Sequence record: SRR31156797_2235
Direction: 5' to 3' (one strand)
DNA length: 51,399 bases
Positions within the stretch are counted from its first letter, which is position 1. Each line of letters opens with the position of its first letter. The notes beneath the pieces are model-generated. The model did no database searches. It was not told the DNA's origin and worked only from the letters and a program-made list of their open reading frames with translations. Position numbers and translations under genes: made by a program. Shown one piece after another: positions 3,117 to 45,986 of this stretch.

Positions 3117-3692
3117 CTATGTTCGTTTAGAGAATTCAGACCTTATGTCCTTAAAAAAAACATCAAACAACTTTCTTAATTTCAACTGATTAGCATCGAA
3201 ACTCTTTTGAAAACCCTTAACATTTTGAGGCATTGAGGTATAATATGACATACCTGTTAAAACCCGCAATAAACCTTTTTTAGTACTATATAATTCCGGC
3301 CAACGATGTTTAACCCAAAAAGGCATCATAATTTGAATTCGATAAGGCAGGATTTCAAAATAAGATAACAAAACAAAATTTACAAAATCTACAAAGTTTG
3401 GTAATGATCTCGGATGATATTTTGCCCAACTTGAAGCTAAAAAATGATCGAATAAAATATCAACTACAACTCCTGAATATTTCCCATATGATTTTGCAAA
3501 ATATGATTTAGCCTCTCGAATAATTGAATGATTATCTGTATAAGTATCTATTTGTCTGTGCAATAAAACACCTTCTCTAATTTTTCCAGGAAACTGCTTA
3601 TATAAGTTACCTTTCACAGCATCTCCGATAAAATTACCTACCATCAAATGATGATCATTTCCTGATAAATATAAATGTGCTAGATAATTCAT
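3117..3692 (-). CDS. acpH: Acyl carrier protein phosphodiesterase
   Basis: MNYLAHLYLS, GNFIGDAVKG, LHRQIDTYTDNH and DILFDHFLA motifs. Confidence 0.9.
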   Translation of the reverse strand: MNYLAHLYLSGNDHHLMVGNFIGDAVKGNLYKQFPGKIREGVLLHRQIDTYTDNHSIIREAKSYFAKSYGKYSGVVVDILFDHFLASSWAKYHPRSLPNFVDFVNFVLLSYFEILPYRIQIMMPFWVKHRWPELYSTKKGLLRVLTGMSYYTSMPQNVKGFQKSFDANQLKLRKLFDVFFKDIRSEFSKRT

Positions 3693-3745
3693 TAAACAAT
3701 TTCTGAGTTAGTTGGACAAAGATTAGGAATTTTTGTTTAAACCCG

Positions 3746-3753
3746 TATATTTG
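3746..3753 (+). promoter_or_regulatory. Bacteroidota -7 promoter element for the gene at 3805
   Basis: TATATTTG about 50 nt upstream of the ATG. Confidence 0.6.
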
Positions 3754-3804
3754 TTCATTCAATTTATTACCAATTATTAACTTTAAAAATGGAGGACTAA
3801 AATT

Positions 3805-5145
3805 ATGACAAAACGTAATGTCATTATTATTGGTGCTGCAGGTCGTGATTTTCACAACTTCAACACTTATTACAGAGGTAACGATTTATTCAATGTAGTA
3901 GCATTCACAGCTGCTCAAATTCCTGACATTGATGGACGTAAATACCCTGCTGAATTAGCTGGAGAATTGTATCCAGAAGGGATTCCTATTTACGCTGAAG
4001 AGGACCTCGAAAAATTAATCAAAGATTTAGATGTTGATGAATGTGTATTCTCATATAGTGATGTGCCTTATGAGCACGTAATGAAGGTAGCTTCTAAAGT
4101 TAACGCTGCAGGTGCAACTTTCTCATTAATTGGTGGAAAAGACACAATGATTAAAAGTACCAAACCTGTAATTGCTGTTGGAGCAGTTCGTACAGGTTGT
4201 GGGAAATCTCAAACATCTCGCCGGGTTATTGAATTATTGATGGAAGCAGGACTAAAAGTGGTTGCTATTCGTCACCCAATGCCTTATGGCGATCTAGTAA
4301 AACAAAAAGTTCAGCGTTTCGCAACAATTGAAGATTTAGCCAAGCATGATTGTACCATTGAGGAGATGGAAGAATACGAACCACATGTAACTCGCGGTAA
4401 CGTGATTTATGCTGGAGTTGATTATGAAGCTATCGTAAGAGCAGCTGAAAATGATCCTGATGGATGTGACGTAATACTTTGGGATGGTGGTAACAATGAC
4501 TTCCCATTCTATCAGTCTGATTTAATGATCACTGTGGTAGATCCTCATCGTCCAGGTCACGAATTAAAATATTACCCAGGTGAAACAACTCTTCGCATTG
4601 CTGATATTGTAGTGATCAACAAAATGGATAGTGCCGATGCAGATAATATTCAAATTGTACGTGAAAATATCGCAAAAGTAGCTCCTAATGCAATGGTTGT
4701 TGATGGTGCTTCACCATTAACTATCGATAAGCCAGAAATCATTCGCGGGAAGAAAGTATTGGTTGTAGAAGATGGACCAACCTTAACTCACGGTGAAATG
4801 AAAATTGGTGCCGGTACAGTAGCAGCTCAAAAAGCAGGTGCTGCTGAAATGGTTGACCCACGTGAATATGCAGTAGGTAAATTAAAAGAAACTTTCAAAA
4901 TTTACCCTGGTATTGGTGATTTACTTCCAGCTATGGGTTACGGTGATGAACAAAAGAAAGATCTGGAAAAAACAATTAATAACACTCCTTGTGACGCTGT
5001 TGTAATTGGTACTCCAATCGATCTAAGCCGCATTGTTAAAATTGACAAGCCTACTGTAAAAGTTGGATATGACCTTCAAGAGATTGGACAACCTACATTA
5101 GCTGAGCCAATTAACGACTTTATCAAGAAACACAACTTGAAATAA
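3805..5145 (+). CDS. arcE: Arginine synthetase ArcE-like P-loop NTPase (often annotated as cyclic 2,3-diphosphoglycerate synthase or GTPase)
   Basis: GAAGRDFHNFN, Walker A AVRTGCGKS, RHPMPYG, WDGGNND, VEDGPTLTHG and LPAMGY; matches my recollection of the Thermococcales ArcE/cDPGS-like family over the full length. Confidence 0.75.
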   Translation: MTKRNVIIIGAAGRDFHNFNTYYRGNDLFNVVAFTAAQIPDIDGRKYPAELAGELYPEGIPIYAEEDLEKLIKDLDVDECVFSYSDVPYEHVMKVASKVNAAGATFSLIGGKDTMIKSTKPVIAVGAVRTGCGKSQTSRRVIELLMEAGLKVVAIRHPMPYGDLVKQKVQRFATIEDLAKHDCTIEEMEEYEPHVTRGNVIYAGVDYEAIVRAAENDPDGCDVILWDGGNNDFPFYQSDLMITVVDPHRPGHELKYYPGETTLRIADIVVINKMDSADADNIQIVRENIAKVAPNAMVVDGASPLTIDKPEIIRGKKVLVVEDGPTLTHGEMKIGAGTVAAQKAGAAEMVDPREYAVGKLKETFKIYPGIGDLLPAMGYGDEQKKDLEKTINNTPCDAVVIGTPIDLSRIVKIDKPTVKVGYDLQEIGQPTLAEPINDFIKKHNLK

Positions 5146-5176
5146 ACATTTTGTGACTAGCGACTAGTCATAAGTT

Positions 5177-5212
5177 AAAGGCTTGCCAATCATGGCAAGC
5201 CTTTTATTTTTT
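5177..5212. terminator. Bidirectional terminator between convergent arcE and pgi
   Basis: AAAGGCTTGCCA-ATCA-TGGCAAGCCTTT, perfect 12-bp stem followed by TATTTTTT. Confidence 0.9.
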
Positions 5213-5224
5213 CACAAACTGATG

Positions 5225-6562
5225 TTAAAACCCTAAGGATTTCCTCAAAGCATTTAACTCTTCATTTTCTTTCTCAAAACCCGGTTTATTCAATAAAGCA
5301 AACATGTTTCTTTTATAATCTTCAACTCCCGGCTGATTAAAGGGATTAACCTGTAGCATTAATCCGCTTATTCCGCATCCTGCCATGAAAAACTGCAATA
5401 AACCTCCAATATTTTCAATATTATCGTTTTCAATCGTAAGTCTAATATTTGGAACTCCTCCTGTACGGTGCGCCAGCATAGTACCTTCGAGAGCATTAGA
5501 ATTTACAAAAGTTAAATCTTTGCCAGATAAATAATTTAATTTATCAAGATTATCTTTATCTGCTTCAATTGATTCTGCTTTTAGTTGAGTATTGGCAAAT
5601 TGAATAACTGTTTCAAAAATATTTCTTTTACCGTCTTGTAAATATTGCCCCATTGAGTGCAAATCTGTAGTTAAATCGACACTAGCTGGAAATATACCTT
5701 TGCCATCTTTTCCTTCGCTCTCTCCATAAAGTTGTTTCCACCATTCTGAGATATAATGAAACTTATGATGATAGTTGGCCAAAACTTCAATTCCGTACCC
5801 ATTTTGATTTAAAGCATTCCTAAGTGCAGCATATTCTAATGCAAGGTTTTGATCATTTTCCGTCCAAACATTTTGCTCCATTTCAACTGCACCTTTGATA
5901 AGTGCCATTATATCAAAACCAGCAACTGCAATAGGCAATAATCCAACTGGAGTAAAAACCGAAAAACGGCCACCCACATTATCTGGTATTACAAAAGATG
6001 GCAAATTCTCTGAATCCACAAGCTGACGCAAGGCTCCCTTTTTCTCATCAGTTATTGCAACAACTCTCTCTTTGAGACTTTCTTCACCATATTGTTTTGT
6101 CAATTTGTTTCTCAAATATCTAAAAGCAATTGCTGGTTCTGTTGTTGTACCAGATTTTGAAATTACAATAATGCTCCATTTTTTTCCATCTAAATAATTT
6201 GACAATTCACTCAAATAACCAGGAGAAAGATGATGGCCAGCATATACAACCTCTGTCCCATTATGATCAAAAGAATTCAATTGACTTTCAATAACAGCAC
6301 GAGCACCCAAATAAGACCCTCCAATTCCGATGACAACAACTACCTCACTATTTGCACGGAGATTATTTGCGACTTCTTCTATTTTTCCTAAGTCTTCATT
6401 TGATATATTCGAGGGCAAGTTCATCCACCCTAAAAAATCATTTCCTTCACAAGTATTATTTTTTAATGATTGTATAACATCACTTCCCATTTCAAGAAAT
6501 CGATTATAATGATTATCAATCATCAATCCTTTCACTAATGATTTATCTATTGAAAGTTGCAT
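5225..6562 (-). CDS. pgi: Glucose-6-phosphate isomerase
   Basis: GIGGSYLG, SKSGTTTEP, VGGRFSV, QLYGESEGK, DLHSMGQ and FNQPGVEDYK motifs. Confidence 0.97.
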   Translation of the reverse strand: MQLSIDKSLVKGLMIDNHYNRFLEMGSDVIQSLKNNTCEGNDFLGWMNLPSNISNEDLGKIEEVANNLRANSEVVVVIGIGGSYLGARAVIESQLNSFDHNGTEVVYAGHHLSPGYLSELSNYLDGKKWSIIVISKSGTTTEPAIAFRYLRNKLTKQYGEESLKERVVAITDEKKGALRQLVDSENLPSFVIPDNVGGRFSVFTPVGLLPIAVAGFDIMALIKGAVEMEQNVWTENDQNLALEYAALRNALNQNGYGIEVLANYHHKFHYISEWWKQLYGESEGKDGKGIFPASVDLTTDLHSMGQYLQDGKRNIFETVIQFANTQLKAESIEADKDNLDKLNYLSGKDLTFVNSNALEGTMLAHRTGGVPNIRLTIENDNIENIGGLLQFFMAGCGISGLMLQVNPFNQPGVEDYKRNMFALLNKPGFEKENEELNALRKSLGF

Positions 6563-6771
6563 ATTGATATGTTTAGTTATTTAATTTTCAGTTACTTATT
6601 AATAATTTTCAGGACTAATAAAGTTAGTGAATTCATATTAACCCAACAAAACTTTGCGAAAATACATTAATTTTTACCGCTTTGTTTTAACTTATCCTAA
6701 AATCTATCAAATGAAATGAGCAATCGTTTGCACTCATCCTGAAATAATTAATAGACTTTTAACAATTTTTA

Positions 6772-6779
6772 TATCTTTG
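6772..6779 (+). promoter_or_regulatory. Bacteroidota -7 promoter element for queE
   Basis: TATCTTTG immediately upstream of the ORF. Confidence 0.65.
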
Positions 6780-6789
6780 CGGGCTCAAA

Positions 6790-7446
6790 TTGTTGATTGT
6801 GAAAGGAGAATTGTATACACGCGTAGATAAGAGTATTACTCAACATGGTTTAAAACTCCCACTGGTTGAGGAGTTTTATAGTATCCAGGGAGAAGGATTT
6901 CATAGTGGCAAAGCTGCCTACTTTATTAGAGTTGGAGGGTGCGATATTGCTTGTCATTGGTGTGACTCAAAATTAAGTTGGAATGCCAATATACATCCTT
7001 TAGTAAGCATAGAAGAAATTGTTGATAAAGTATTAGGAACTCCAGCACAATCAGTTGTAGTAACCGGTGGTGAACCTGCTATTTATAATCTTGAACCTTT
7101 GAGTAACTTACTTCGAAAAAACAAGATAAGTAATTATCTCGAGACCAGTGGAGCTTATGAAATAAAAGGCTCATGGGATTGGATTTGTGTAAGTCCCAAA
7201 AAGAATAAAGTACCGCTAACTGAAAACCTTAAATTAGCCAATGAATTAAAAGTGGTTATTTTTGATGAATCTGATTTTGAATTTGCTGAAAAATGGAAAT
7301 CTGAAGTTACTGATTCGTGCAAACTACTTTTACAACCTGAATACTCTCAGTTTGCTAAAATGGCTCCTAAAATGGTTGATTATATAAAAAACAACCCGGA
7401 TTGGAATATATCACTACAATCTCATAAATATCTTAATATTCCTTAG
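6790..7446 (+). CDS. queE: 7-carboxy-7-deazaguanine synthase (radical SAM); true start uncertain (6790, 6799 or 6811)
   Basis: FYSIQGEG, CDIACHWCDS (CxxxCxxC), VTGGEP, ETSG, SPK and SLQSHK motifs. Confidence 0.93.
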   Translation: MLIVKGELYTRVDKSITQHGLKLPLVEEFYSIQGEGFHSGKAAYFIRVGGCDIACHWCDSKLSWNANIHPLVSIEEIVDKVLGTPAQSVVVTGGEPAIYNLEPLSNLLRKNKISNYLETSGAYEIKGSWDWICVSPKKNKVPLTENLKLANELKVVIFDESDFEFAEKWKSEVTDSCKLLLQPEYSQFAKMAPKMVDYIKNNPDWNISLQSHKYLNIP

Positions 7447-8358
7447 TTATAGGAAGAAAAAAGCCACACCTCCAACTGCCACAAATGCTCCAAGAATTTC
7501 TCTTAAAGAAACCTTTTCTTTAAAAATAAAAACAGAAGGTAAAATAATTATAACAGGTGTTAATGACATTAGTGTTTGAGCAATTCCCGCAGAAGTAAAT
7601 TTAACAGCTACTAAAGATAATGTTACACCTAAAAAAGGTCCGAAAAAAGCACCACCTGAAGTGAATAGCATTCCTTTTCCATTCTTTAGTGCCGCAAATA
7701 CTTTATGCCACCTTCTCATAAAAAAGAATACTATCATAAATCCAACAGCACCTGTCATAACCCTTATATGAGTAGAAGCAACGACATCATAATCGGCCAT
7801 TCCTTTTTTACTCAAAACCAAACCAATAGCCTGCCCAGTTGCTCCTCCAAATGCTAATAATAAACCTATGGGATTATTGAACCAATCTTTTAATTTGGCT
7901 TTTTTACCATTGTCATCTTTTGCAGGCTTATTCAACACTACCATCATGATTCCGGTGAGTGTGATTACCATCCCCAAGATAGCACTATTCTCCATTGTCT
8001 CTCCAAGAATCATCCAACCTGCTATAGCGGCTACTGGAGGTGAAAGCGCCATTATTAACATAGAGATTCTTGCGCCAACAACTACAAAAGCCTGAAACAA
8101 TAATAAATCACCAATAGTAAAACCAACCAATCCGGATAAAGCCAACCATATCCAATTATGCATACTTGCATCTATTGGAAGAAAAAGACCTCGATTAATC
8201 CATGTAACAGTACCGAGTAATACAAAAGCCATAATTAACCTTATCAAATTAACCGATAGTGAACCAATCTTTTTTCCTGCTGCTTCAAAAAACATAGATG
8301 TTGCAGTCCAGCAAATTGCTGTTCCAACACCTGCTATTTCACCATAATATTGTTCCAT
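7447..8358 (-). CDS. DMT/EamA family transporter
   Basis: About 10 hydrophobic segments in two repeats; LSGLVGFTIGD and IFKEKVSLREILG. Confidence 0.9.
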   Translation of the reverse strand: MEQYYGEIAGVGTAICWTATSMFFEAAGKKIGSLSVNLIRLIMAFVLLGTVTWINRGLFLPIDASMHNWIWLALSGLVGFTIGDLLLFQAFVVVGARISMLIMALSPPVAAIAGWMILGETMENSAILGMVITLTGIMMVVLNKPAKDDNGKKAKLKDWFNNPIGLLLAFGGATGQAIGLVLSKKGMADYDVVASTHIRVMTGAVGFMIVFFFMRRWHKVFAALKNGKGMLFTSGGAFFGPFLGVTLSLVAVKFTSAGIAQTLMSLTPVIIILPSVFIFKEKVSLREILGAFVAVGGVAFFFL

Positions 8359-8459
8359 TATAAATCTTGGGTAGAATGAGGCTGCAAGATGGTAAAAAAA
8401 TCTAAAAAATGCATAGATAACATCTTCCTAAAGTATCATTATTTGATTATCTTCGTTAT

Positions 8460-9725
8460 ATGTACGTGAATTCTGAAAATATCGAATATATAAAGGAGAA
8501 AATAGCCTCAGCTCCATTATTTGAAGGAACGCAAGGCCACCAGCTTGAAACCATTATAAAAACTTCTATGTTGGTCGATTATCAAAGTGGGCAGGTCATA
8601 TTTGAAAGAGGTGACAGAGCGAACGGGTTTTTCATCATCATTGAAGGAAGGGTTAAAATTCATGTAAGGCAAATAAAGTTTATTGAATTAGGTCCTGGGA
8701 AATATTTTGGTGAATATGCAATGATACAGCAGCAACATCATACATCAACTGTTACTGCAATTGATGATTGTAGATGTTTAGTTATTCCTCCGGATATATT
8801 CGGTAATTTATTGCAGCAAAATCTTCCATTCAGCAATCGGCTTCTTAAAAGTCTCATTCAAAGGTTGCGTTCCAAGGACAAACTAGAGATATCATTGCTT
8901 GAGAAAAACAAGGAGATTAGTGATCAAAATGAAAGAATCAGGAAACAAAACCAAAAGATCAAGGAGCAAAATGAGCGAATTCACGAAAGTATTGAATATG
9001 CTGGCATGATTCAATCAACCATGTTGCCATCGAAAAAACTACTTAACCTAAAACTTGAAAACTACTTTCTTATATTTCACCCGAGAGAGAAGGTTAGCGG
9101 TGATTTTTATTGGTTTGCACAAAAAGACAATAAATACTGTATTGCAGTTAGTGACTGTACAGGTCATGGCGTACCCGGAAGTATGATCAGCATTCTTGGA
9201 GTATCATTTTTAAATGAGATATTCAATCAAGTTAATGAACCCGATCCCGGGAAGATACTATCGAAACTGAACAATAAAATGCAGAATGCATTAAATCAAA
9301 ACAGAGAAAAATACCAGTCTCATGATGGTATGGATATTTCTATTGTATTGATTGATTTTGATAGCATGGAATTATCTTATGCAGGAGCTCAAAGTCCATT
9401 ATATTTACTCAGAAATAATGAACTTACTATTTTCAACCCAGACAAAGTAAATGTTGGAACTGCCCCACATAATTATAAATTTAACAGACAGGATACTCTT
9501 CTTGATAATAATGACATGCTTTATCTATTTACTGATGGAATTTTAGATCAACTTGGGGGTGATGACTTCAAGAGATTTAGTACAAGTAAATTTAAAAAAG
9601 TACTTGAGCAAATTGGTCACCTTTCTTTGGAAAAACAAGAACAAGCAATTTTAGATAATTTTTATGATTGGAAAGGTGAAAACAAGCAAACCGATGACAT
9701 AACACTCCTGGGCATTAGGATATAA
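8460..9725 (+). CDS. cNMP-binding domain plus coiled coil plus SpoIIE/RsbU PP2C phosphatase
   Basis: IFERGD...GKYFGEYA (cNMP); VSGDFYW, DCTGHGVPG, DGMD, FTDG and QTDDIT (SpoIIE). Confidence 0.9.
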   Translation: MYVNSENIEYIKEKIASAPLFEGTQGHQLETIIKTSMLVDYQSGQVIFERGDRANGFFIIIEGRVKIHVRQIKFIELGPGKYFGEYAMIQQQHHTSTVTAIDDCRCLVIPPDIFGNLLQQNLPFSNRLLKSLIQRLRSKDKLEISLLEKNKEISDQNERIRKQNQKIKEQNERIHESIEYAGMIQSTMLPSKKLLNLKLENYFLIFHPREKVSGDFYWFAQKDNKYCIAVSDCTGHGVPGSMISILGVSFLNEIFNQVNEPDPGKILSKLNNKMQNALNQNREKYQSHDGMDISIVLIDFDSMELSYAGAQSPLYLLRNNELTIFNPDKVNVGTAPHNYKFNRQDTLLDNNDMLYLFTDGILDQLGGDDFKRFSTSKFKKVLEQIGHLSLEKQEQAILDNFYDWKGENKQTDDITLLGIRI

Positions 9726-9754
9726 AAAAAGAGGCACTTCAATGAAGTACCTCT
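9724..9754 (-). terminator. Terminator of the tlpA-DUF6029-omp28-T9SS operon
   Basis: Minus strand AGAGGTACTTC-ATT-GAAGTGCCTCT followed by a T run. Confidence 0.8.
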
Positions 9755-9772
9755 CTCAATGCTGTATTAATC

Positions 9773-10477
9773 CTACTTCTTGATAATCTTCTTAGTTTGA
9801 ATGACATTTGAATTATCCATCAATTTAAGCATATAAATGCCACGAGGTAAATCACTTAAATTGAGTTGATAATTTGTAGCACTATTAATTGGTTGTGAAA
9901 TAACCAATTTACCTACGGCGTCATAGATATCAACCTTTGTATCAGGATTGGTGCTTCCATTAAAATATACATTCATAGTTGAAGTCACCGGATTTGGGTA
10001 TGCATTTAGTTCGTTTGTATTTGTATTGAAAATTCCTACAGGACTCACAAAATAATTAACATAAAAAACTAATGTTTCAGAATTATCTGTATTTGTTAGT
10101 GTGATTTTAACAACTGCATCACCACTGTTTTCATATGGCCACAAGTCAACATCGAGAGGCTGACTATCATTAGCTGCAATTGTAAAATCAACTTCAGTTG
10201 TATTTGGGGCATAACAAACATCCAAACAAAAGACTGAAGACATTCCATCTGGAAGTTCAGTATTTTCTTTCAATATATTCATTCTCAACTCCGAAGCTGT
10301 TAAGTTATTGATTACAAAATGCCTTTTAATATCAAAATCATCAGCCATTCCATAGGCTGTCAAGGTATCATTATTTGATACAATCGTATCTGTATTAAGG
10401 ATTTTAACCTCAAAATTTTGAGCTCCTGCAATAAATGCGATTAAAGCAAAAACAATTGATAAGTAGACTTTTTTCAT
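9773..10477 (-). CDS. T9SS type A sorting domain protein with CxxxC motif (start moved to 10477)
   Basis: Signal peptide MKKVYLSIVFALIAFIAGAQ; FCLDVCY; C-terminal domain AYPNP...IYDAVGK...LPRGIYML...KKIIKK. Confidence 0.9.
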   Translation of the reverse strand: MKKVYLSIVFALIAFIAGAQNFEVKILNTDTIVSNNDTLTAYGMADDFDIKRHFVINNLTASELRMNILKENTELPDGMSSVFCLDVCYAPNTTEVDFTIAANDSQPLDVDLWPYENSGDAVVKITLTNTDNSETLVFYVNYFVSPVGIFNTNTNELNAYPNPVTSTMNVYFNGSTNPDTKVDIYDAVGKLVISQPINSATNYQLNLSDLPRGIYMLKLMDNSNVIQTKKIIKK

Positions 10478-10505
10478 AGTATAAAATTTGGGTAGTTTCA
10501 TGAAA

Positions 10506-11303
10506 TTATTCAACTAATTTTCGTTGCTCTCCAGTATAAATTTCTAGGGTATTAGCATCAACAATGATGCCAATTACATATAGATTATTTACATCCCAAC
10601 TTTCATCAACACTAACATTTAAGCTTAGAGAAGCTGTGCCACTATCGAATGAAATACTATTACCGCTTAATCCGGTAAAACACTTTCTTAGTACATGTCG
10701 ATGATCGTAAGGATCAATTTCAGTACCTATCTGAGGGCCTTCTATATGATCTTCAATTATAAAGCCGTAAAACCTTAAATCAGAGTTTACTTCTTCCCTT
10801 TCTGTTATTTCGTAATCAGCAGTTATCACATTGTCATCTAATGTGATATTTGGCTCAATTACAAACTTAGAATACTGAGGAACATAATATCCTACTTCAC
10901 CCTGCCAAGAAGCTGTCGCACCTACAATTGCATTGTCAGGATGCATACTTGAAAAAATTATCGAAGGTGTTGCGGGTTGACCTAATGATTCATATAGCTG
11001 GTCACCAAAAGGGGTACGAAATTCGGGCTCATCACCATGAGGGATTGCAAAAAAACCGGCATGAATACTTATCGGAATTACATGGCCATGATAAACTGAA
11101 TCAATCTGCTCTATTGCAACATGACCTTCCGGGCAATTTGTACAGTGTATACCTGTAAATTCAAATATAACAGCTTTACGTGTCAATTCAGTTGGTTCTT
11201 CTATTTCAATCTGATTTCCATATGGTTCATTAACCTCATCGCAGCTTTGCAAGCTAAAGATTATAAAACCTGTTAATAGAGTTATCAATATATTTTTCAT
11301 CAC
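10506..11303 (-). CDS. Omp28 family outer-membrane lipoprotein (thioredoxin-like CxxC)
   Basis: Lipobox SLQSC followed by acidic DEVNE; EFTGIHCTNCP; ISIHAG; YDHRHVLR. Confidence 0.88.
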   Translation of the reverse strand: MMKNILITLLTGFIIFSLQSCDEVNEPYGNQIEIEEPTELTRKAVIFEFTGIHCTNCPEGHVAIEQIDSVYHGHVIPISIHAGFFAIPHGDEPEFRTPFGDQLYESLGQPATPSIIFSSMHPDNAIVGATASWQGEVGYYVPQYSKFVIEPNITLDDNVITADYEITEREEVNSDLRFYGFIIEDHIEGPQIGTEIDPYDHRHVLRKCFTGLSGNSISFDSGTASLSLNVSVDESWDVNNLYVIGIIVDANTLEIYTGEQRKLVE

Positions 11304-11316
11304 TATTAATTTTAAA

Positions 11317-12945
11317 TTAGAACGTAGAGGAAATTGTTATGTATGCTCCATAAGCAGAGGGTACCTGACGGCATACTCCTCCAACACAAACTATTCCTTC
11401 TCTTTGCTTACCAAAATTGAGTTGGATCCTGTTTCCTCCTTTATTATATCCCATACCCAATGTATAATAATGAACGCGTAAATCTTTATCCTCATTGCCA
11501 TAATTAAACTGATCCATTATAGAAAAAAACCAATGAGGTGAAATAGTATATTCTAACATAGCACTATACCAATCTCCTCTGTCTTGTTCAGTTAATAATA
11601 ATTGCTGTTCTAAACGCACAGTATGACGTTTGAAAAGGCGATAACTAAGATCTAAAACTCCTGTTTTTGCATAAACAATACCACCTTTTCCTTCTATAAT
11701 CTGCTTATTATAACTCACATATTGTACAACTAGTACGCCTTTAAACTTCTTGGTAAACTTACGTTCAATTTTTAAATTAAAATCATCATATAAAAGCTCA
11801 TCAGAAATAGCAAGGAATTGATCTTTGTATCCTAATGTATCATTCTCAAGACCTTCTGTGTCTCTTTCAATATCATGAACTCTTGAATAGTTTAATGTAA
11901 TAAGAGTTCCATATTTTCCTCCAAGCAAAGATTTACGTTTTAGCCTGTAATAAACTTCACCTTGAAAGCCAGCTTCTCCAGTTAATTGGGTAGCATAAGG
12001 ATACATGGCAGCTAAAGCATAAGTATGATTTTGGGTTATAGCTGGTAAATAATTTATCAATAAGTTTTTATCTACTGCTTGATAATCAGACCTAAAACTC
12101 ATATTATCAACCCATTTTCCGTCCAGCACTATTCCGAAAGGTCCTTTTGAATATGTAGCGTTTAGCATTAAAGCATTTCCATCTTTGTATATCAAATCAT
12201 TATCAGCTGAAGGATCATTTGCTTTGTGTGCATACTCTCCTTTTAGTCCAAATAACCCATACTGGTAATTGAATCTCCCGGCAAAAGCTGCAACATTCTC
12301 TGGTAAATTATACTGAATATTTTCATCCTTTTGATACTTCGAAACAATACTACCACCAATAACCAGACGTGATTTCATTGATCCTAGCGTGTCAAAAAGT
12401 TCGTTAATATTTATTTCCGCATCCAAACCGCGGACAATACCTTCGCCTAATTCAAAGTAAACACGTTGTTTTCCATACAATCCCTTAAAATAGACTCCTT
12501 TATACGGATTATACTTCACATGCACACCTTCTAGAGCATTATCGTACCCTAAGTTTTTATCTTCCCATGCTCTTAAAACCAGTCCATTTCCAAACTGATC
12601 ATAAAAATTACCTACGGTAAATTGTAGTTCCTTATTTTTATAAGAAAGAAATTTATAAGGAATACCTGTTCCATCATTCCCTTTTTCAAATCCTTGTAAG
12701 GTATTCAAATAACCTTCAAAACGAAGACCTGCAGTAAAGTTTCCATATTCATATCGGAAATTACCATAAGCATTCATCAATGTTTTTTCAGGTGGAACTT
12801 CAGTACCAATGACTGAATCTTTCAAATAGTACCAGGCTTCTAAATTAAAGTTTCCGCTTAATCTGCCTTTCGGTTGTTCATCGGGTTGGGCAAAAGCAGA
12901 AAAGCCTGTAACTAATATCAGTAGTGATATAATAGTTTTTTTCAT
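11317..12945 (-). CDS. DUF6029 family outer-membrane beta-barrel (start moved to 12945)
   Basis: Signal peptide MKKTIISLL; VGNFYDQFGNGLVLR; C-terminal GKQREGIVCVGGVCRQVP; terminal Phe. Confidence 0.85.
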   Translation of the reverse strand: MKKTIISLLILVTGFSAFAQPDEQPKGRLSGNFNLEAWYYLKDSVIGTEVPPEKTLMNAYGNFRYEYGNFTAGLRFEGYLNTLQGFEKGNDGTGIPYKFLSYKNKELQFTVGNFYDQFGNGLVLRAWEDKNLGYDNALEGVHVKYNPYKGVYFKGLYGKQRVYFELGEGIVRGLDAEININELFDTLGSMKSRLVIGGSIVSKYQKDENIQYNLPENVAAFAGRFNYQYGLFGLKGEYAHKANDPSADNDLIYKDGNALMLNATYSKGPFGIVLDGKWVDNMSFRSDYQAVDKNLLINYLPAITQNHTYALAAMYPYATQLTGEAGFQGEVYYRLKRKSLLGGKYGTLITLNYSRVHDIERDTEGLENDTLGYKDQFLAISDELLYDDFNLKIERKFTKKFKGVLVVQYVSYNKQIIEGKGGIVYAKTGVLDLSYRLFKRHTVRLEQQLLLTEQDRGDWYSAMLEYTISPHWFFSIMDQFNYGNEDKDLRVHYYTLGMGYNKGGNRIQLNFGKQREGIVCVGGVCRQVPSAYGAYITISSTF

Positions 12946-13004
12946 TATAATGTTGTAGTTAGGACACACAAGTAAGAAAAACTAATGGTCAGAGGAAAAT
13001 AAAA

Positions 13005-13487
13005 TTATTTAGTTAGCTCAAGAATTTTTTCGTAAAGCTCCTCTTCATCACCTTCAACATATGAAGTATGCTGCCAAACAATTTTACCATTTCCATCTAA
13101 AAGAAATGTATGTGGTACATTGGCTACATTCATAGCACGCTTAAAGCTTCCATTTTCATCAAGAAATACTTCAAATTGCCATCCTCTAGCATTGACATAA
13201 GGTGCCACTCTACCTGAACTACGGGTATCATCAGTTGAAATAGCGATCAACTTTACGCCTGTTTCATCAACCCAATCATCATAATTATCACTGTAAGCAT
13301 TTAATTCTTTAACACAAGGCTTACACCAAGTAGCCCAAAAGCTTATGACCATTGGCTTACCATCATTATTAAACTTACTTGTGTTAACGGTTTCTCCAGA
13401 AAGCTTTTTCACATCAGCTGAAGGAATTGATTGAGCTGACAAATTTAAAGTGAAAAAAACTAACGTAACAAATAGTAGACTCTTCAT
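13005..13487 (-). CDS. TlpA/ResA family thiol-disulfide oxidoreductase
   Basis: Signal peptide; SFWATWCKPC; cis-Pro motif VPHTFLLD. Confidence 0.93.
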   Translation of the reverse strand: MKSLLFVTLVFFTLNLSAQSIPSADVKKLSGETVNTSKFNNDGKPMVISFWATWCKPCVKELNAYSDNYDDWVDETGVKLIAISTDDTRSSGRVAPYVNARGWQFEVFLDENGSFKRAMNVANVPHTFLLDGNGKIVWQHTSYVEGDEEELYEKILELTK

Positions 13488-13769
13488 AGTTGCGAAATTT
13501 TAGATAATGTTTATTTAAAATGCCATTCCTTAATTTACAAGCAAATACGGGTTTTCAAGCTCGTAGGATTACATTTATCAGGACGCAAGATACAAAAAAG
13601 TTTTACTGATAAAAACTGACAAATATCAACAAGCATAAAAAAATATAACTCTTAATATGTCAAAACATGTTGATTAGTCTATACTTTGGTATTTTTTATA
13701 AAAAAATAATAGGATGAAAACTTAGAATTACTAACTTCAAATCCTAAACACGCCAAACGCCTCACACGT

Positions 13770-22991: not shown

Positions 22992-24479
22992 CTAATGAAT
23001 GACTGAAACAGTCCCCTTTTTCACTTTTTCTTTGGAATCAACAAACTTATAAGTTGCCACATATAAATACCCTCCAGGCATTACAAGATTACCATTAAAA
23101 GTTCCATCCCAACCATTTTCTACGTTGTCACTCTCAAATAAAAGCTGCCCCCATTTATTGAATATTTTCAAATTATAACGCTCAGGTACTGACCTTTCAA
23201 CATAAGGTCTAAACACTCCATCCACACCGTAATGACCAGCTATAATTGCATTGGGCCATTTCAACCTATCTTTAATTATTACAGTAGCTGGATTTGAAAT
23301 TATTTGTATAGAGTTTTCAGTCAGCGCTTTTACTCGATAAATTACTTCTGGATTAGTTAAAGGTTGTTGTAAAATTTCCTCATCAGTTTCGAAAATTGGT
23401 GAAGATACATTAAATAGGTTAAGCTGACCATCTGCTAACCTTTGCAAAACATAAGTTGCCTCTCCAAACTCATAATCATTTGCTGATAACTCAATATAAC
23501 TAATTCTATCGTTTAAGGTTAATATGATAGAATTTACAGTATCACTAGAAATTTGATCCATTAAGCATAAATCTGAAGCTTCAAGATAATAATAAGCAAT
23601 TTCATTAGTGCCCAAATCATCTATAATTTCAACATTTTCATTTGGCAAATAAATATCTTCAATAGTATCAAAACTAAAATCTAAATCACTACTACGAAAA
23701 ACTAATAGCCTACCGGTAAGATCGCTATCCAATTCAATATTTAAGTTATTTGAAAAGCTTTCATTTGTTTCCAAAAGACTAACCTTTGCAGGAGGGGGCA
23801 TTTCAGGTTTATTTGTGAAATACTCAGTTGGGGTTGAAGTTGAAGTAAAATCAGGACCGATGGCACGAACACGGAATGTATAATTTTCATTTAAGTTTAA
23901 ACCAGAAAAAATAAAACTATTAGAAGATGTAGATTCTTTACGAAAATCATTATCAGAAACGGCAAAAACTTCATAGGGAGGTTCGATTGTGCCTGAAGGT
24001 GCTTCGTCGCTATAATATGTATTCCAACTTAAAGTCACCGCAGTTTGGCAGGAATCATAATCTGTAACCTCGACTTGCATGTTTTGTGAATGATCGTAGG
24101 CTATTTCCCCTAGAATAAGTTGATCATTAATGTGCGTAAAAGCATCCAAACGAAAACCCTGAATTTCTTCAACAGGATTAGATACTGAATCAAAATAAAA
24201 GGTTGCAAAAGCATCATGAATAGTATCAGGATTCCCAAATCCAGTTATTGGAATCACATCCCTGACAATAAAACCACTTGAATCAGTATTATAACCCGTC
24301 CAGTCATATGGTTCCCAGCCAAGCACGCAACGGTATTGTCCATTTGGCAATGTATCTACTGAAATAGAGTCAATTACAGGAGGATCTAATGTTATCTGCC
24401 CCATTGCAGAATTGACATTAGAAATAAGATAAACTGTAAATATAATCCAACTAATTCTTATGATACCTTTCTTCATCAT
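22992..24479 (-). CDS. T9SS type B (CHU_C, gliding-associated C-terminal domain) protein with FN3-like domains
   Basis: Signal peptide; FSGLNLNENYTFRVRA; C-terminal PNAI...IFNKWGQLLF...GWDGTFNG...KGTVSVIH. Confidence 0.85.
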   Translation of the reverse strand: MMKKGIIRISWIIFTVYLISNVNSAMGQITLDPPVIDSISVDTLPNGQYRCVLGWEPYDWTGYNTDSSGFIVRDVIPITGFGNPDTIHDAFATFYFDSVSNPVEEIQGFRLDAFTHINDQLILGEIAYDHSQNMQVEVTDYDSCQTAVTLSWNTYYSDEAPSGTIEPPYEVFAVSDNDFRKESTSSNSFIFSGLNLNENYTFRVRAIGPDFTSTSTPTEYFTNKPEMPPPAKVSLLETNESFSNNLNIELDSDLTGRLLVFRSSDLDFSFDTIEDIYLPNENVEIIDDLGTNEIAYYYLEASDLCLMDQISSDTVNSIILTLNDRISYIELSANDYEFGEATYVLQRLADGQLNLFNVSSPIFETDEEILQQPLTNPEVIYRVKALTENSIQIISNPATVIIKDRLKWPNAIIAGHYGVDGVFRPYVERSVPERYNLKIFNKWGQLLFESDNVENGWDGTFNGNLVMPGGYLYVATYKFVDSKEKVKKGTVSVIH

Positions 24480-25750
24480 TTGGGTTGCACAATTACTTTG
24501 GTAAAGTTATCAAAATTGATATATTCATTAGCCATAGAACGGATATATGATGGATTTAATTTTTTAACTGTATCCAAAAATTTCTGATAATAGTCTAATC
24601 CTAAGCCAAAATTATATACGGACTGAAAAGAGCTATCGCATGAAAACATTCCATCAAATGCACCTAAAAGTTCTCCGGATAAATAATTTTTTAATCGTAC
24701 CAATTCATCTTCTCCGACAGGTTCATTTTTGAGTCTATTTATCTCTTTTTCAACTTCTGCCAAAACTTTTTCATCTGTACCTTTAATAATTTCAGATGCA
24801 ATTCTGAAAACTCCTACCTGTTCATTACTTACTATTGAACTATAAATATCGTAGGTATATCCTGATTTTTCTCTTATGTTTTGCATTAATCGTGAACCAA
24901 TGTAACCACCTAAAAGTGTAGACACGATTTTGAGTCCTATATAATCAGGATGGCTTTTTATAATGCTTTGAAAACCAAGTAAAATGTAAGTCTGACTAGA
25001 GTATGGATTTTGAATATTCTTAATAAGAGGTTGATAATTAAAATCTTCTAGTATGGGAGGAATTGCGTTAAAACCACTTCCTTTTTGTGTCTCAAATAAT
25101 GATAATAGGTTTATCTTTTCACTATCGTTCAATTCACCTGATATCAAAACATATCCATTATCAGCATTGATATATTTATGATGAAAATCTCTCAATTCTG
25201 TATGAGATATATTTTGAAAATCCTCTGGATGTAAAACTTTACTATATGGATTATTTTCACCCAAAATAGCTGGCAAAAAAATGTCTTCTGCAATGGTAGC
25301 ATTATATTGAAATGCTTCAATTAATGAATTTTCTTCACGCTTTGCTGCAACATTTATTCTATCAGCATTAAGTTCGGGATGAAAAACTGAATTCTGAAAA
25401 ATTTGAGCCAGCTCATAAAGATTTTGTTTTTGGCAAACCAAAGAAAAAACCAACTTATCTTTATCAGCCTTACTAAAAATATATGCACCTAAGCCATCAA
25501 CTTTTTCAGATAGCGAATCTCCCGGAAAATCTTCACTCCCTTCAAAAATCACCCTGGATAATAATTTAATGACGGCTGCATTACCATACTTAGTTCCTGC
25601 ATTAAATACATAATTCAATTTTATAATATCTGTATTAACAGCAGGAATATAAAAGCAGGAAAGGTTATTGGCAAGAATTTGCTTTTCCACTTCAAACAAT
25701 TCCAAATTATAATCTGAATATATATCTGGTTGAAGTATTTTATCCATCAT
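24476..25750 (-). CDS. M16 peptidase, non-catalytic subunit
   Basis: LGGYIGSRLMQNIREKSGYTY; lacks HxxEH; paired with the adjacent catalytic subunit. Confidence 0.85.
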   Translation of the reverse strand: MMDKILQPDIYSDYNLELFEVEKQILANNLSCFYIPAVNTDIIKLNYVFNAGTKYGNAAVIKLLSRVIFEGSEDFPGDSLSEKVDGLGAYIFSKADKDKLVFSLVCQKQNLYELAQIFQNSVFHPELNADRINVAAKREENSLIEAFQYNATIAEDIFLPAILGENNPYSKVLHPEDFQNISHTELRDFHHKYINADNGYVLISGELNDSEKINLLSLFETQKGSGFNAIPPILEDFNYQPLIKNIQNPYSSQTYILLGFQSIIKSHPDYIGLKIVSTLLGGYIGSRLMQNIREKSGYTYDIYSSIVSNEQVGVFRIASEIIKGTDEKVLAEVEKEINRLKNEPVGEDELVRLKNYLSGELLGAFDGMFSCDSSFQSVYNFGLGLDYYQKFLDTVKKLNPSYIRSMANEYINFDNFTKVIVQPK

Positions 25751-26981
25751 TTTGTTTCTTATAAATCAACAAATTACGCTTTTCAGGCTGAAAAAGACTA
25801 TTAGCAAAATCAGAAATTTCATCTCTTGTGGTTACCTCGTATTCTTCAATCTGTTTATTAATATGGGAAGGACTATGAACTACATCAGCATAGCACAAAT
25901 CCATGGCTCTGTTTGCATGCTCCAAATAGCCAACTTTTTGAAAAGTAATGAGTTTGTTTTTCACTTTTCTTACCTCATATGGCTCAATATCTTTCTTTAT
26001 CTTATCCAATTGACTTTCAATCAAATCAACACCCTGTTCAATAGTGCAGCCCTTATTTAGCTTTCCTCTTATCATAAACAATCCACAATCCACATTACCT
26101 GTAAGAGAAGCATTTAATGATGTAAAAACAGCATCATTACGTCTTAGGTACTGTTGAAACCTACTGGACTTATCAAAGGACAAAACATCTGACAATAAAT
26201 CAGCCCTGTAAAATTCACGTGAATTTCTTGGCCCCATGTGGTAAGCCATTACAATCATTTCCATCGGAATATCCTTACTAACGACTTTTTCTTGCTGAGC
26301 AATCTGAGGACTTTCCATAACAATTTCACTTTTATCCTTTCTTTGACCTGTGATTCTGCCAAAGTATTTTTCAGTTAGTTTAAATACTTTTTCATGATGT
26401 ACATTTCCCGAAACGGCAATTACAGCATTTGAAGGTTGATAAAATCTCTTATGAAAATCAATTACATCATCAAACTGAATCTGTTTAATATGCTCTATTT
26501 CAGCACCAATAACCGGCCATCTATATGGATGACTTTTATATACTAGCGGTAATAAATATGACATTACATCTCCATATGGTGGATTTAAAACCCGCTGGTT
26601 ATATTCTTCTAAAACTACTTTTCGCTGTATTTCCAAGACATCCGGTGATAGATTTGGATAAAACATCCTATCGGATTCTAAAAAAAATGCAGTTTCGATG
26701 TTTAAAGCAGGTAATGTAATATAGTAATTGGTATAATCAGAAGTTGTAAAGGCATTATTATTACCCCCAGAAAGCTCAACTTGCTGATCGTAATGAAGCA
26801 CATTTTTAGAACCTCCGAACATCAAATGTTCGAATAAATGGGCTAATCCAGTTTTATCCGGATTTTCATGCTTACTACCCACTTTATAAGCAATACTAAA
26901 AGTGGCCATTGGAGTATCAGGATTATAATCTGATATTATTGTGAGGCCATTAGCTAACTTTATACTCTTGAAATCAATCAT
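25740..26981 (-). CDS. M16 (pitrilysin family) zinc peptidase, catalytic subunit
   Basis: TGLAHLFEHLMFGGS, NNAFT, LESDRM, HPYRWPVIG. Confidence 0.93.
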   Translation of the reverse strand: MIDFKSIKLANGLTIISDYNPDTPMATFSIAYKVGSKHENPDKTGLAHLFEHLMFGGSKNVLHYDQQVELSGGNNNAFTTSDYTNYYITLPALNIETAFFLESDRMFYPNLSPDVLEIQRKVVLEEYNQRVLNPPYGDVMSYLLPLVYKSHPYRWPVIGAEIEHIKQIQFDDVIDFHKRFYQPSNAVIAVSGNVHHEKVFKLTEKYFGRITGQRKDKSEIVMESPQIAQQEKVVSKDIPMEMIVMAYHMGPRNSREFYRADLLSDVLSFDKSSRFQQYLRRNDAVFTSLNASLTGNVDCGLFMIRGKLNKGCTIEQGVDLIESQLDKIKKDIEPYEVRKVKNKLITFQKVGYLEHANRAMDLCYADVVHSPSHINKQIEEYEVTTRDEISDFANSLFQPEKRNLLIYKKQNDG

Positions 26982-27924
26982 TAAAAAATGAAGTTAATGC
27001 GTTTTTTGCTTGTGAATATTCTTTGATTAATCTCTTAAAAATTTCACTTATAGGCTCAACAGCATTAATAAGCGCTGATGATTGTCCAATTTCTAATTCA
27101 CCTTCCACCAAATCACCCTCTAACATTCCTTTTTTTGCCCTTCCTTTTCCTAGCAAATTAGCAAACTCTTGAGCATCTGCTCCGCTAATCTCTAATTTTT
27201 GCACCTGTTCATAAAACTCATTTCTAATCATTCTTACAGGTGCTAATTTTTTGAGCGTCAACACCGTTTCACCCTCTTTTATTTTGGCAATTTTAGATTT
27301 AAATGCCATATCAGCTGATGACTCCTGACTAGCTGCAAATAAACTTCCAATTTGTACACCTTCTGCGCCCAAACTTTGAGCTGCAAGAATTGCCTTACCT
27401 GTTGCTATGCCACCTGCAGCAATTAACGGAATATCAACACTTTGTTTTACCAATTCTATTAATGTTAAAGTAGTAGTTTCTTCTCGTCCATTATGACCTC
27501 CCGCTTCAAAACCCTCTGCCACTATTGCATCAACACCGGCTGCTTCACTTTTCTGTGCAAATAAAGCACTGGAAACCACGTGCACTACTATAGCCCCATT
27601 ATCGTGAAGCATTTGTGTATATTTCTTAGGACTTCCTGCTGATGTGAAAACAATCTCTATTTTTTCATCTAATACAACCTGAATTAAATCATCCGCATAA
27701 GGAGAAATAAGAGGTATGTTTACACCAAAAGATTTATGCGTAGCATTTCTTACTTTTTGAATTTGCTCTCTTAATAAATCGGGCTTCATAGAACCTGCTC
27801 CCAATAAACCAAGTCCTCCGGAATTACTTACAGCTGACACCAGGCGCCAACCACTGCACCAAACCATACCTCCCTGTACTATTGGATATTTTATTTTAAA
27901 TAGTTCACAAACTCTGTTTCTCAT
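26974..27924 (-). CDS. Nitronate monooxygenase / FabK-like FMN enzyme
   Basis: PIVQGGM, EGFEAGGH, IAAGGI, GAEGVQIG. Confidence 0.88.
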   Translation of the reverse strand: MRNRVCELFKIKYPIVQGGMVWCSGWRLVSAVSNSGGLGLLGAGSMKPDLLREQIQKVRNATHKSFGVNIPLISPYADDLIQVVLDEKIEIVFTSAGSPKKYTQMLHDNGAIVVHVVSSALFAQKSEAAGVDAIVAEGFEAGGHNGREETTTLTLIELVKQSVDIPLIAAGGIATGKAILAAQSLGAEGVQIGSLFAASQESSADMAFKSKIAKIKEGETVLTLKKLAPVRMIRNEFYEQVQKLEISGADAQEFANLLGKGRAKKGMLEGDLVEGELEIGQSSALINAVEPISEIFKRLIKEYSQAKNALTSFFND

Positions 27925-31824: not shown

Positions 31825-31875
31825 TAAGAAGAGGTATAAAACGCTGACCTGTATATGTTTCAAAAGGTACTGTTT

Positions 31876-38444: not shown

Positions 38445-38447
38445 AAA

Positions 38448-45577: not shown

Positions 45578-45984
45578 ACCTAAATATACTACAATACGCC
45601 GAAAAACCAATCAGGTGGCTATTAATCATCATATCGATTGTAGCCTTGCTGCGTGGACATAATTATCCGGGTGGTGGCTTTATTGGTGGTCTTTTGGCCG
45701 GATTGGCCATTGTATTCCAGAGTTTGGCCTATGATGTAGAAACCGTCCGAAAAAAAATGAAGCTTTCTCCACAAAGTTTTATCGGAATAGGACTGGCCAT
45801 AGCAGCAATTAGCCTTTTACCATCAATTATTGGAGGTGCAGAACTGATGCAAGCCTATTGGGTTAAATTGCAAATAACAGAAAGTTATGTGCTTAAGTTA
45901 GGCACTCCGTTAATATTTGATATTGGTATTTTCTTTTCGGTTATCGGAATTGTATTAATGTTCATTTTTAATCTGAGTAAATAA
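45574..45984 (+). CDS. mrpB: Mrp antiporter subunit B
   Basis: RGHNYPGGGFIGG, FDIGI. Confidence 0.93.
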   Translation: MNLNILQYAEKPIRWLLIIISIVALLRGHNYPGGGFIGGLLAGLAIVFQSLAYDVETVRKKMKLSPQSFIGIGLAIAAISLLPSIIGGAELMQAYWVKLQITESYVLKLGTPLIFDIGIFFSVIGIVLMFIFNLSK

Positions 45985-45986
45985 TT

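Follow-up and report, generated by a model that had tools for sequence, protein, structure and literature searches.

Four co-oriented minus-strand open reading frames (ORFs) at 9773-13487 of a 51,399-nucleotide stretch of DNA from sequence record SRR31156797_2235 (hereafter the window, meaning the whole stretch) encode a TlpA/ResA-like thiol-disulfide oxidoreductase, an outer-membrane barrel of the family DUF6029, an Omp28-family lipoprotein and a PorA-like type IX secretion system (T9SS) cargo, with one terminator downstream. We established that this cluster represents a conserved Bacteroidota module made up of a TlpA-type protein, a wide barrel without a plug and thioredoxin-fold surface proteins, often joined by PorA as a fourth. 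In our data the barrel is tied to thiol chemistry at either face of the outer membrane, and the most likely reading, to which we give a probability of roughly 0.4, is that the module forms a thiol-disulfide relay across that membrane. An original prediction, made from the sequence alone, had proposed a relay of this kind; when we recomputed the region from its ORFs, the four minus-strand genes, the terminator and the four cysteine motifs on which it was built were all present.

Thioredoxin-fold partners accompany the DUF6029 barrel across Bacteroidota

We compared the cluster with two sets of loci. The close loci are the best 80 of 582 confirmed genomic DUF6029 relatives, 44-54% identical to the window, and adjacency among them was counted over the loci with room for the neighbour in question (74 for TlpA and 71 for Omp28). 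The 20 distant loci were chosen from weaker DUF6029 matches, with profile E values of 1e-17 to 1e-54. Among the close loci, a TlpA gene lies directly upstream of the barrel gene on the same strand in 69 of 74 (median gap 33 nt), and an Omp28 gene lies directly downstream of it in 70 of 71 (median gap 13 nt). At the distant loci a TlpA bearing WCxPC is adjacent in 20/20, often with a 4-nt overlap with the barrel gene, and a thioredoxin-fold partner adjoins the barrel in 19/20, none being found in the stretch examined at L084. The nature of this partner changes from lineage to lineage: L085-L090 have an Omp28-like CxxC protein that bears a type-I signal peptide and ends in a T9SS tail, and L091-L100 have in its place a 175-aa CPHC-bearing Redoxin lipoprotein together with a 270-aa paralogue that has a T9SS tail (Pfam). 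Because the link outlasts replacement of the partner, drift or shared ancestry of a single operon is hard to credit as its cause. The original prediction had turned to synteny across Bacteroidota as a check, and the order of TlpA, barrel and thioredoxin partner is indeed kept in both the close and the distant DUF6029 subfamilies.

The same association appears in the distribution of these proteins over 301 genomes of the phylum, for which we used Fisher's test without phylogenetic correction. DUF6029 occurs in 80 of the 301 genomes and is single copy in the 5 genomes checked. All 50 genomes with an Omp28 match above the Pfam cut-off are DUF6029-positive, and there is none among the 221 DUF6029-negative genomes (Fisher 2e-36, uncorrected for phylogeny). 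In many genomes a single full-length barrel stands beside 2 to 6 matches to the Omp28 domain, several of these matches in frames of 600-1000 aa far from the barrel, and one barrel therefore appears to accompany several Omp28/HBP35-type proteins.

Other genes recur around the 80 loci. A small OMP_b-brl_2 barrel is found at 26, a flavoprotein at 21 and mannose-6-phosphate isomerase at 14, and a large T9SS cargo that contains a Redoxin/CGPC or an Omp28 domain stands beside TlpA at 10 of the 80. In its 26 loci the OMP_b-brl_2 gene (~214 aa) lies directly 3′ of Omp28, usually in the same orientation, and it is absent from the window. One locus, L057 (6757-8461), is the sole one with neither TlpA nor Omp28 beside DUF6029, and carries genes for cytochrome oxidase subunit III and a SCO1/SenC thioredoxin-fold copper chaperone downstream.

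The TlpA-like protein is related to known periplasmic oxidoreductases

The gene upstream of the barrel (13005..13487, minus strand, 160 aa) encodes a protein with a type-I signal peptide (..LNLSAQ, followed by S after the cleavage site) and a WCKPC active site. The range that the original prediction had assigned to WCKPC, 13314-13325, holds the CKPC codons, with the W codon just outside it. Pfam matches to AhpC-TSA (77.8 bits, E 9.1e-22) and Redoxin (70.1 bits, E 2.2e-19) are both above their cut-offs, and the scores for ResA (78.2 against 170 bits), TlpA (40.4 against 230) and DsbE (52.6 against 123) fall below those of NCBIfam. On these profile scores the protein belongs to a family related to ResA, TlpA and DsbE and is none of these three itself. 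Its closest solved relative is 2m72_A, an ‘uncharacterized thioredoxin-like protein’ matched over the full length (E 5.4e-51), with ResA at 2.4e-16. The adjacent TlpA proteins keep WCxxC in 69/69 close and 20/20 distant loci.

The protein resembles the ends of the pathways that lead from DsbD/CcdA to TlpA, ResA or CcmG in its periplasmic thioredoxin fold, its WCxPC and its signal peptide, and its best named relatives are ResA, StoA and DsbE. Those pathways, however, end in the periplasm, whereas the reductase of the window is tied to an outer-membrane barrel and surface thioredoxins. No CcdA or DsbD gene was found within the window.

DUF6029 is predicted to form a wide barrel with an external cysteine hairpin

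The second gene (11317..12969, minus strand) encodes 550 aa, with the ATG at 12945 as the likelier start. Residues 9-550 match profile positions 1-538 of DUF6029 (PF19494) at 613.6 bits against a cut-off of 27 (E 4.3e-184), a family that comprises no fewer than 5806 clusters at 90% identity and has 1173 representatives at the 50% level. Read from the ATG at 12945, the protein begins with a signal peptide that ends ..SAFAQ, and its last residue is Phe. The hairpin GIVCVGGVCRQVP is invariant and contains CVGGVC (codons 11371-11388), which holds both of the exactly two cysteines of the mature protein. This pair takes the form C[VI]GG[VI]C in 80/80 close loci and CxxGxC in 20/20 distant loci, where the barrel tails read CIGGVC, CTNGVC, CSNGVC, CANGIC or CTSGIC. 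In alignment A3, which comprises 85 full-length sequences (fragments excluded) with 28-83% identity to the window, C525 and G523 are invariant and C520, G522, R526 and P529 are at least 90% conserved. Conservation of the cysteine pair, a further check named by the original prediction, was thus found in both sets of loci.

The AlphaFold2 (AF2) model of the protein (predicted local distance difference test, pLDDT, 95.4; predicted template modelling score, pTM, 0.89) has ~24 membrane strands by DSSP and no globular plug. Together with the C-terminal Phe and the count of two cysteines, this agrees with the earlier description of DUF6029 as a β-barrel in which CVGGVC holds the only mature cysteines. 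In the model, strands 517-521 and 524-528 run around the GG turn, placing C520 opposite C525 across a two-residue hairpin. Because the C-terminal Phe of an outer-membrane barrel is periplasmic, and because strand parity counted from the N-terminus is consistent with this, the cysteine hairpin would be the tip of the last hairpin on the external side. A position of the CVGGVC loop in the lumen, reachable from both faces, which the original prediction had named as a check, finds no support in this topology.

The model also has a 42-residue loop, 281-322 (window ~11980-12105), that is the family's most conserved stretch and has neither a cysteine nor regular secondary structure. Its consensus is NMSFRSD..INYLPAITKNHTY..MYPYATQ, and it may be a constriction or a docking site.

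Aligned with solved folds using VIA-align, the barrel comes closest to the usher pores FimD (3ohn_B; Z 18.0, root-mean-square deviation 4.4, 370 residues aligned) and PapC (Z 17.4), followed at lower rank by LptD, MtrB (Z 12.3) and Wzi (Z 12.4). FimD and PapC share with it ~24 strands and the closest geometry, and the N-domain of PorA, discussed below, resembles the usher substrate FimH. Unlike the ushers, which have a plug and N- and C-terminal domains, the AF2 model is all barrel and loops, and the identity to the usher pores is 10-12%. We take the match to be one of size and shape and not of homology, so that DUF6029 may work in an usher-like way without being a member of the usher family. 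No chaperone gene was found among the recurrent neighbours of the 80 loci. LptD-LptE is likewise a large barrel with essential disulfides and a lipoprotein partner, and LptD is among the structural matches; unlike the window system, LptE is no thioredoxin, LptD has a periplasmic jellyroll domain and the function is insertion of lipopolysaccharide.

A sequence search of DUF6029 against the PDB returned only spurious RecA matches. No DUF6029 fusion longer than 950 aa was found, which is weak evidence, and the longest protein among 150 listed representatives is at most 618 aa. The one publication that we found to mention DUF6029 reports similarity to the Wzi barrel by HHpred and guesses at a role in polysaccharide export (PMC9603273). 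We rejected this role, as the recurrent neighbours of the 80 loci include no outer-membrane polysaccharide export (OPX) or other polysaccharide genes and Wzi scores 12.4 against 18.0 for FimD.

The Omp28-family lipoprotein resembles a characterised surface thioredoxin

The third gene (10506..11303, minus strand, 265 aa) encodes a protein with the lipobox SLQS followed by C21, an acidic tether, CDEVNEPY, and the active site FTGIHCTNCP, whose CTNC codons lie at 11133-11144. It matches Pfam Omp28 (PF11551) over residues 101-251 at 54.4 bits against a cut-off of 34.9 (E 1.7e-14) and aligns with NCBIfam lipoprot_Omp28 (NF033782) over positions 5-260 of 264 at 117.6 bits, below the cut-off of 150. 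Judged by these matches, it is a divergent member of the Omp28-family lipoproteins. We aligned 70 sequences: that of the window and those of 69 among the 71 full-length proteins encoded next to DUF6029 (L013, nearly a duplicate of L011, and L031, whose frame is split, were dropped). At a mean identity of 26%, C21, T50, C54, C57 and P113 are invariant, and His81 is nearly so and is accompanied by other conserved polar residues. Beyond the CxxC and the lipobox Cys21 the window protein has Cys208, which is not conserved.

In the AF2 model (pLDDT 91.8), a thioredoxin-like beta-alpha-beta unit at the N-terminus, with CxxC where a helix begins, is followed by a beta-sandwich at the C-terminus. Foldseek matches the model best to 5y1a, the structure of HBP35 (E 3.6e-16, TMq 0.69, 251 columns). 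A profile of the family (A2) searched against the PDB gave 2r2c at 5.4e-33, 5y1a over its full length at 8.8e-8 and plain thioredoxins at ~1e-4, and its alignment sets FTGhkCvnCP opposite FTAEWCGYCP of HBP35. Work in Porphyromonas gingivalis has located HBP35 at the cell surface, and shown that it reduces insulin dependent on Cys48/Cys51 and complements an Escherichia coli dsbA mutant; it also binds haemin and is required for growth when haemin is scarce (PMC2907840). On the strength of the shared fold and the profile homology, the Omp28 protein of the window is a lipoprotein relative of an experimentally characterised surface thioredoxin. Both have a thioredoxin domain, a beta-sandwich and a CxxCP active site. 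HBP35, however, is a cargo of the T9SS, bears a C-terminal sorting domain, is anchored through anionic lipopolysaccharide (A-LPS) and is strictly T9SS-dependent (PMC7712824), whereas the window protein is a lipoprotein. Searches with Pfam and NCBIfam found no Por_Secre_tail on it, and such a tail is present on relatives at other loci. The T9SS tail borne by counterparts of Omp28 from other lineages speaks for a location at the surface.

The tether gives a mixed answer. The earlier observation of CTNC and a lipobox is firm, C21 being invariant in 70/70 sequences. The further suggestion that the acidic tether is a surface-export signal holds as a resemblance: the family consensus, C-D-K-[IV]-[ED]-E-P-Y, resembles the tested signal C-X-K-(D/E)2-X (PMC5080379) and does not match it.

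We also considered selenocysteine at the CxxC of L083, L101 and L102, where an in-frame TGA had been flagged, and rejected it, as no UxxC or CxxU lies in a plausible frame. The NCBIfam profile ‘Omp28-related selenoprotein’ hits the window protein weakly (43.8 bits against a cut-off of 200).

The fourth gene encodes a predicted PorA orthologue

The last gene (9773..10513, minus strand, 246 aa, with the ATG at 10477 as the likelier start) encodes a protein with a type-A T9SS C-terminal domain at ~9782-10000 (Por_Secre_tail E 1.2e-15; TIGR04183 55.4 bits against a cut-off of 23) and an N-domain that is Ig/FimH-lectin-like. It has exactly two cysteines, both in CLDVC (codons 10214-10228). Across 32 homologues of ~240 aa, aligned over their full length at ~22% identity, N59, C85 and C89 are invariant and the cysteines are spaced by 3 to 10 residues. 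CLDVC accordingly does supply the only cysteines of the cargo, as had been noted from the sequence, and the pair is kept in 32/32. A Sco-like copper site or a CuA-like site was rejected, there being no invariant His or Met alongside the pair in the 32 sequences. The profile of the cargo family (A4, positions 32-152) matches residues 14-140 of the chain 6kjk, ‘N-terminal domain of PorA (28-171)’, at E 4.8e-7, and a look-up of the N-domain in the ESM Atlas returned unnamed clusters only, under 0.9.

P. gingivalis PorA (PGN_0123/PG2172) also has 246 aa and carries Cys92 and Cys96 (PMC7712824; PMC12152298), so that the two proteins agree in length, in a Cys-x3-Cys pair and in homology to 6kjk. Published names for the preceding locus tags are a thioredoxin-domain protein for PG2175, an uncharacterised vesicle protein for PG2174 and Omp28 for PG2173 (PMC13744359; PMC4335976). 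By locus-tag numbering and these names, the porA locus PG2175-PG2172 has the same four genes in the same order as the window, and from this synteny we infer that PG2174 is the DUF6029 protein. The module thus appears to be present in P. gingivalis, a genetically tractable species, and its fourth gene in the window is, on sequence grounds, a PorA orthologue. In P. gingivalis, PorA is required for T9SS gene expression driven by PorXY-SigP and has a FimH-like N-domain (PMC7712824), and its C-terminal domain binds PorY in the periplasm, with the role of the N-domain left open (PMC12152298). Activation through PorY, PorX and SigP by the PorA C-terminal domain is known for P. gingivalis only, and the window protein is assigned to PorA by its sequence. 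Export of PorA has been published as T9SS-independent (PMC7712824). The two PorA papers (PMC7712824; PMC12152298) mention neither the neighbouring genes nor a disulfide, and one supplementary file of PMC12152298 contains no match for Omp28, PGN_0121-0125 or thioredoxin. Our search of the literature, which included the P. gingivalis locus tags, turned up no account of the module.

Among the 80 DUF6029-positive genomes 35 have a PorA N-domain, as do 8 of the 221 DUF6029-negative ones, and in 23 of the 35 it lies at most 7 kb from the barrel. Of the 80 close loci, 28 have a PorA-like gene of full length, mostly upstream and divergent, unlike in the window. The proposal that gene order follows location from inside to outside therefore holds for the three core genes and does not extend to the PorA-like gene. 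Two fusions join the parts more directly: in a 478-aa T9SS cargo at L103, an Omp28-type thioredoxin (CQWC) is joined to a PorA N-domain and a sorting tail, and a 685-aa T9SS cargo at L104 likewise unites an Omp28-type thioredoxin with a PorA N-domain. With these fusions, the Omp28 thioredoxin and PorA N-domain come together on the extracellular side.

The L103 fusion belongs to a seven-gene minus-strand cluster (G173:C105, ~3500-12800) that also includes TlpA and DUF6029. Its other members are an Omp28-like lipoprotein with a PEGA domain, two Omp28 proteins with T9SS tails and a cargo with three tandem PorA N-domains.

A proposed relay weighed against other readings of the module

In the relay that we favour, a TlpA-type reductase, soluble in the periplasm and presumably recharged by CcdA/DsbD of the inner membrane, would meet a barrel that serves as the site at which thiol-disulfide exchange passes between periplasmic and surface thioredoxins. 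The exchange could run through the barrel's invariant external cysteine hairpin, or a thioredoxin domain could enter the wide lumen and touch the other thioredoxin, by analogy with MtrA and MtrC in MtrB. The surface thioredoxin would be of the Omp28/HBP35 type, a lipoprotein in the window and a T9SS cargo in other lineages, and would act on clients, the likeliest being the invariant cysteine pair of the PorA N-domain; with PorA as a client, the module would be tied to a regulator of type IX secretion. From the observed parts, folds, invariant cysteine pairs, synteny, co-occurrence and fusions we infer the locations of the parts, their assembly into a complex and the passage and direction of redox equivalents. 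MtrCAB (6r2q), which we use as an analogy only, likewise encodes together a wide barrel and two redox proteins, one of them periplasmic and the other a surface lipoprotein; its carriers are haems and not cysteine pairs, and it has no sequence relation to the window proteins, all four of which lack the CxxCH motif.

We favour the relay because it explains together the thioredoxins on both faces, the exclusive co-occurrence of Omp28 with the barrel and the many-to-one relation between them. It draws further support from the high-confidence barrel model, which has no plug and whose nearest folds are pores that pass folded domains. A more specific version, in which TlpA and the surface thioredoxin exchange thiols through the 24-strand barrel as a porin-thioredoxin conduit that charges surface thioredoxins, which then act on PorA, is tentative and in our view rather doubtful.

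Several points weigh against the relay. The motif in the barrel is a CX4C cross-strand staple at a two-residue turn and no CxxC active site; such geometry is typical of a structural disulfide, and the modelled hairpin could be purely structural. With the hairpin external by topology, a periplasmic TlpA would reach it only through the lumen. The surface location of the Omp28 lipoprotein is itself deduced, its tether resembling the tested export signal and not matching it. The co-occurrence statistics, besides being uncorrected for phylogeny, partly restate synteny; 5 of the 74 close loci have no adjacent TlpA and have instead UbiA, a methyltransferase, or COX3 and SCO1 (L057); and 8 genomes have a PorA-like protein and no DUF6029. 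Mutation of Cys92, 96, 137 and 181 of PorA in P. gingivalis left PorXY activation unaffected (PMC12152298), so that redox action on PorA is not needed for the one function known for it. Thiol or electron transfer and protein binding are steps that no result here bears out: of what the original prediction had drawn, the linked genes, the thioredoxin folds and the conserved pairs stand, and the passage of reducing equivalents across the outer membrane found no support. A complex prediction with ESMFold2 for DUF6029 (22-542) and Omp28 (21-265), run without alignments or controls, scored 0.01 and is not evidence either way.

The main rival, which we consider unlikely, is that DUF6029 is an usher-like translocon or anchor for PorA, with the thioredoxins as redox chaperones: TlpA would keep the cysteines of the client reduced in the periplasm, the surface thioredoxin or the hairpin would oxidise them outside, and the resulting disulfide ratchet would drive export. 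This reading would account for the published T9SS-independent export of PorA and the resemblance of its N-domain to the FimH lectin domain (PMC7712824), for the best barrel matches being FimD and PapC (Z 18.0 and 17.4), pores that pass FimH-type domains, and for porA adjoining the module in the window and many genomes; in a dsbA mutant of E. coli, moreover, HBP35 can serve as an oxidant (PMC2907840). The distribution suits this rival less well than it does the relay, however, as no PorA N-domain was matched in 45 of the 80 DUF6029-positive genomes and the barrel is missing from 8 PorA-positive ones, whereas TlpA and the thioredoxin partner are nearly always adjacent. The partner of the barrel has a T9SS tail in several lineages, and HBP35, which bears such a tail, is strictly T9SS-dependent. 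The barrel, for its part, has neither the usher plug nor the N- and C-terminal domains, no chaperone gene accompanies it, and 10-12% identity marks the usher match as one of shape.

LptD is an outer-membrane protein with essential disulfides that needs periplasmic oxidoreductases. By that precedent, nothing need cross the membrane at all: the job of the barrel could be unrelated to redox and the hairpin disulfide structural, with TlpA and Omp28 maturing or proof-reading cysteine pairs, or with the genes linked by co-regulation. The CX4C staple geometry suits such an arrangement, as does the polysaccharide role suggested from similarity to Wzi (PMC9603273; Wzi Z 12.4). We nevertheless think it improbable, since the association survives partner exchange and divergence of the barrel to a profile E of 1e-17, Omp28 domains are found in 0/221 barrel-negative genomes, and two thioredoxins on apparently opposite faces exceed what a single hairpin needs; polysaccharide-export genes are also missing from the recurrent neighbours.

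Barrels paired with a surface lipoprotein are common in Bacteroidota. The least probable of the rivals builds on this pairing and holds the module to be an uptake device with SusCD logic and no TonB, in which the surface thioredoxin-fold protein captures a thiol-reactive or redox-sensitive substrate (a disulfide, a persulfide, haem or a metal) and periplasmic TlpA resolves or reduces it; the haemin binding of HBP35 and its need under scarce haemin (PMC2907840), the near-invariant His81 and conserved polar residues of Omp28 beyond its CxxC, and the wide, unplugged barrel speak for it, but no transporter, TonB-box or metabolic gene is consistently linked at the 80 loci, CxxCH is absent, no ligand can be named, and the link and fusion to PorA are left unexplained.

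Cluster boundaries, transcription and other features of the window

The genes of the cluster are closely spaced, with 35 to 59 nt between TlpA and the barrel, 13 nt between the barrel and Omp28, and an 8-nt overlap between Omp28 and the PorA-like gene that becomes a 28-nt gap if the ATG at 10477 is used. An intrinsic terminator (9727..9757, minus strand; 14-bp stem, 3-nt loop and T-run) stands 16 nt past the stop codon of the PorA-like gene. At the other end, a divergent intergenic region of 282 nt (13488..13769) separates the TlpA-like gene from a plus-strand fructose-1,6-bisphosphatase gene and is presumed to be the promoter region of the cluster.

In one metatranscriptome sample, RNA contigs ~98% identical to the window are confined to 9702-10490 and end 13 nt upstream of the PorA-like ATG at 10477; the missing coverage over the other three genes carries no weight. 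A scan with a sigma-70 model, which is ill-suited to Bacteroidota promoters, gave matches at 10561-10533 and 10533-10505, in the 3′ end of the Omp28 gene. The RNA coverage is a weak hint that the PorA-like gene has a separate promoter, within the 3′ end of the Omp28 gene.

Converging on the terminator from the other side is a plus-strand gene (8460-9725) for a protein with cyclic-nucleotide-binding and SpoIIE/PP2C phosphatase domains. Two further genes of the window recall type IX secretion: one (31855-34542, plus strand) encodes an 895-aa protein with PD40, CarboxypepD_reg and OmpA domains, a set like that of the T9SS component PorE, and the other belongs to a minus-strand stretch at 22992-27924, where the gene for a 495-aa protein ending in a T9SS tail of the CHU_C kind (type B) lies upstream of an M16 peptidase gene pair and a nitronate monooxygenase-like gene. 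At 37263-40298 (minus strand), a gene for a 616-aa protein with Fe-only hydrogenase large-subunit, ferredoxin and PAS domains adjoins one for a SpoIIE-type phosphatase, and the two look like a sensory hydrogenase-like regulator pair. Genes for a multisubunit cation/proton antiporter of the Mrp/Mnh type (Proton_antipo_M, MbhD/E, MnhB) lie at 43277-47812 (plus strand).

Implications for redox chemistry at the outer membrane

We know of no explanation for how surface thioredoxins such as HBP35 are recharged outside the cell, where there is neither NADPH nor DsbD. The barrel, its gene flanked by those for a periplasmic reductase and a surface thioredoxin, is a concrete candidate for this recharging. 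Were the porin-thioredoxin conduit real, cysteine-based redox would for the first time be known to cross the outer membrane of a bacterium, and the redox state of the envelope would be coupled to the control of type IX secretion. The module also bears on the T9SS-independent route by which PorA reaches the surface and on the role of its conserved N-domain, and DUF6029, a family with thousands of members and no known function, gains a testable hypothesis.

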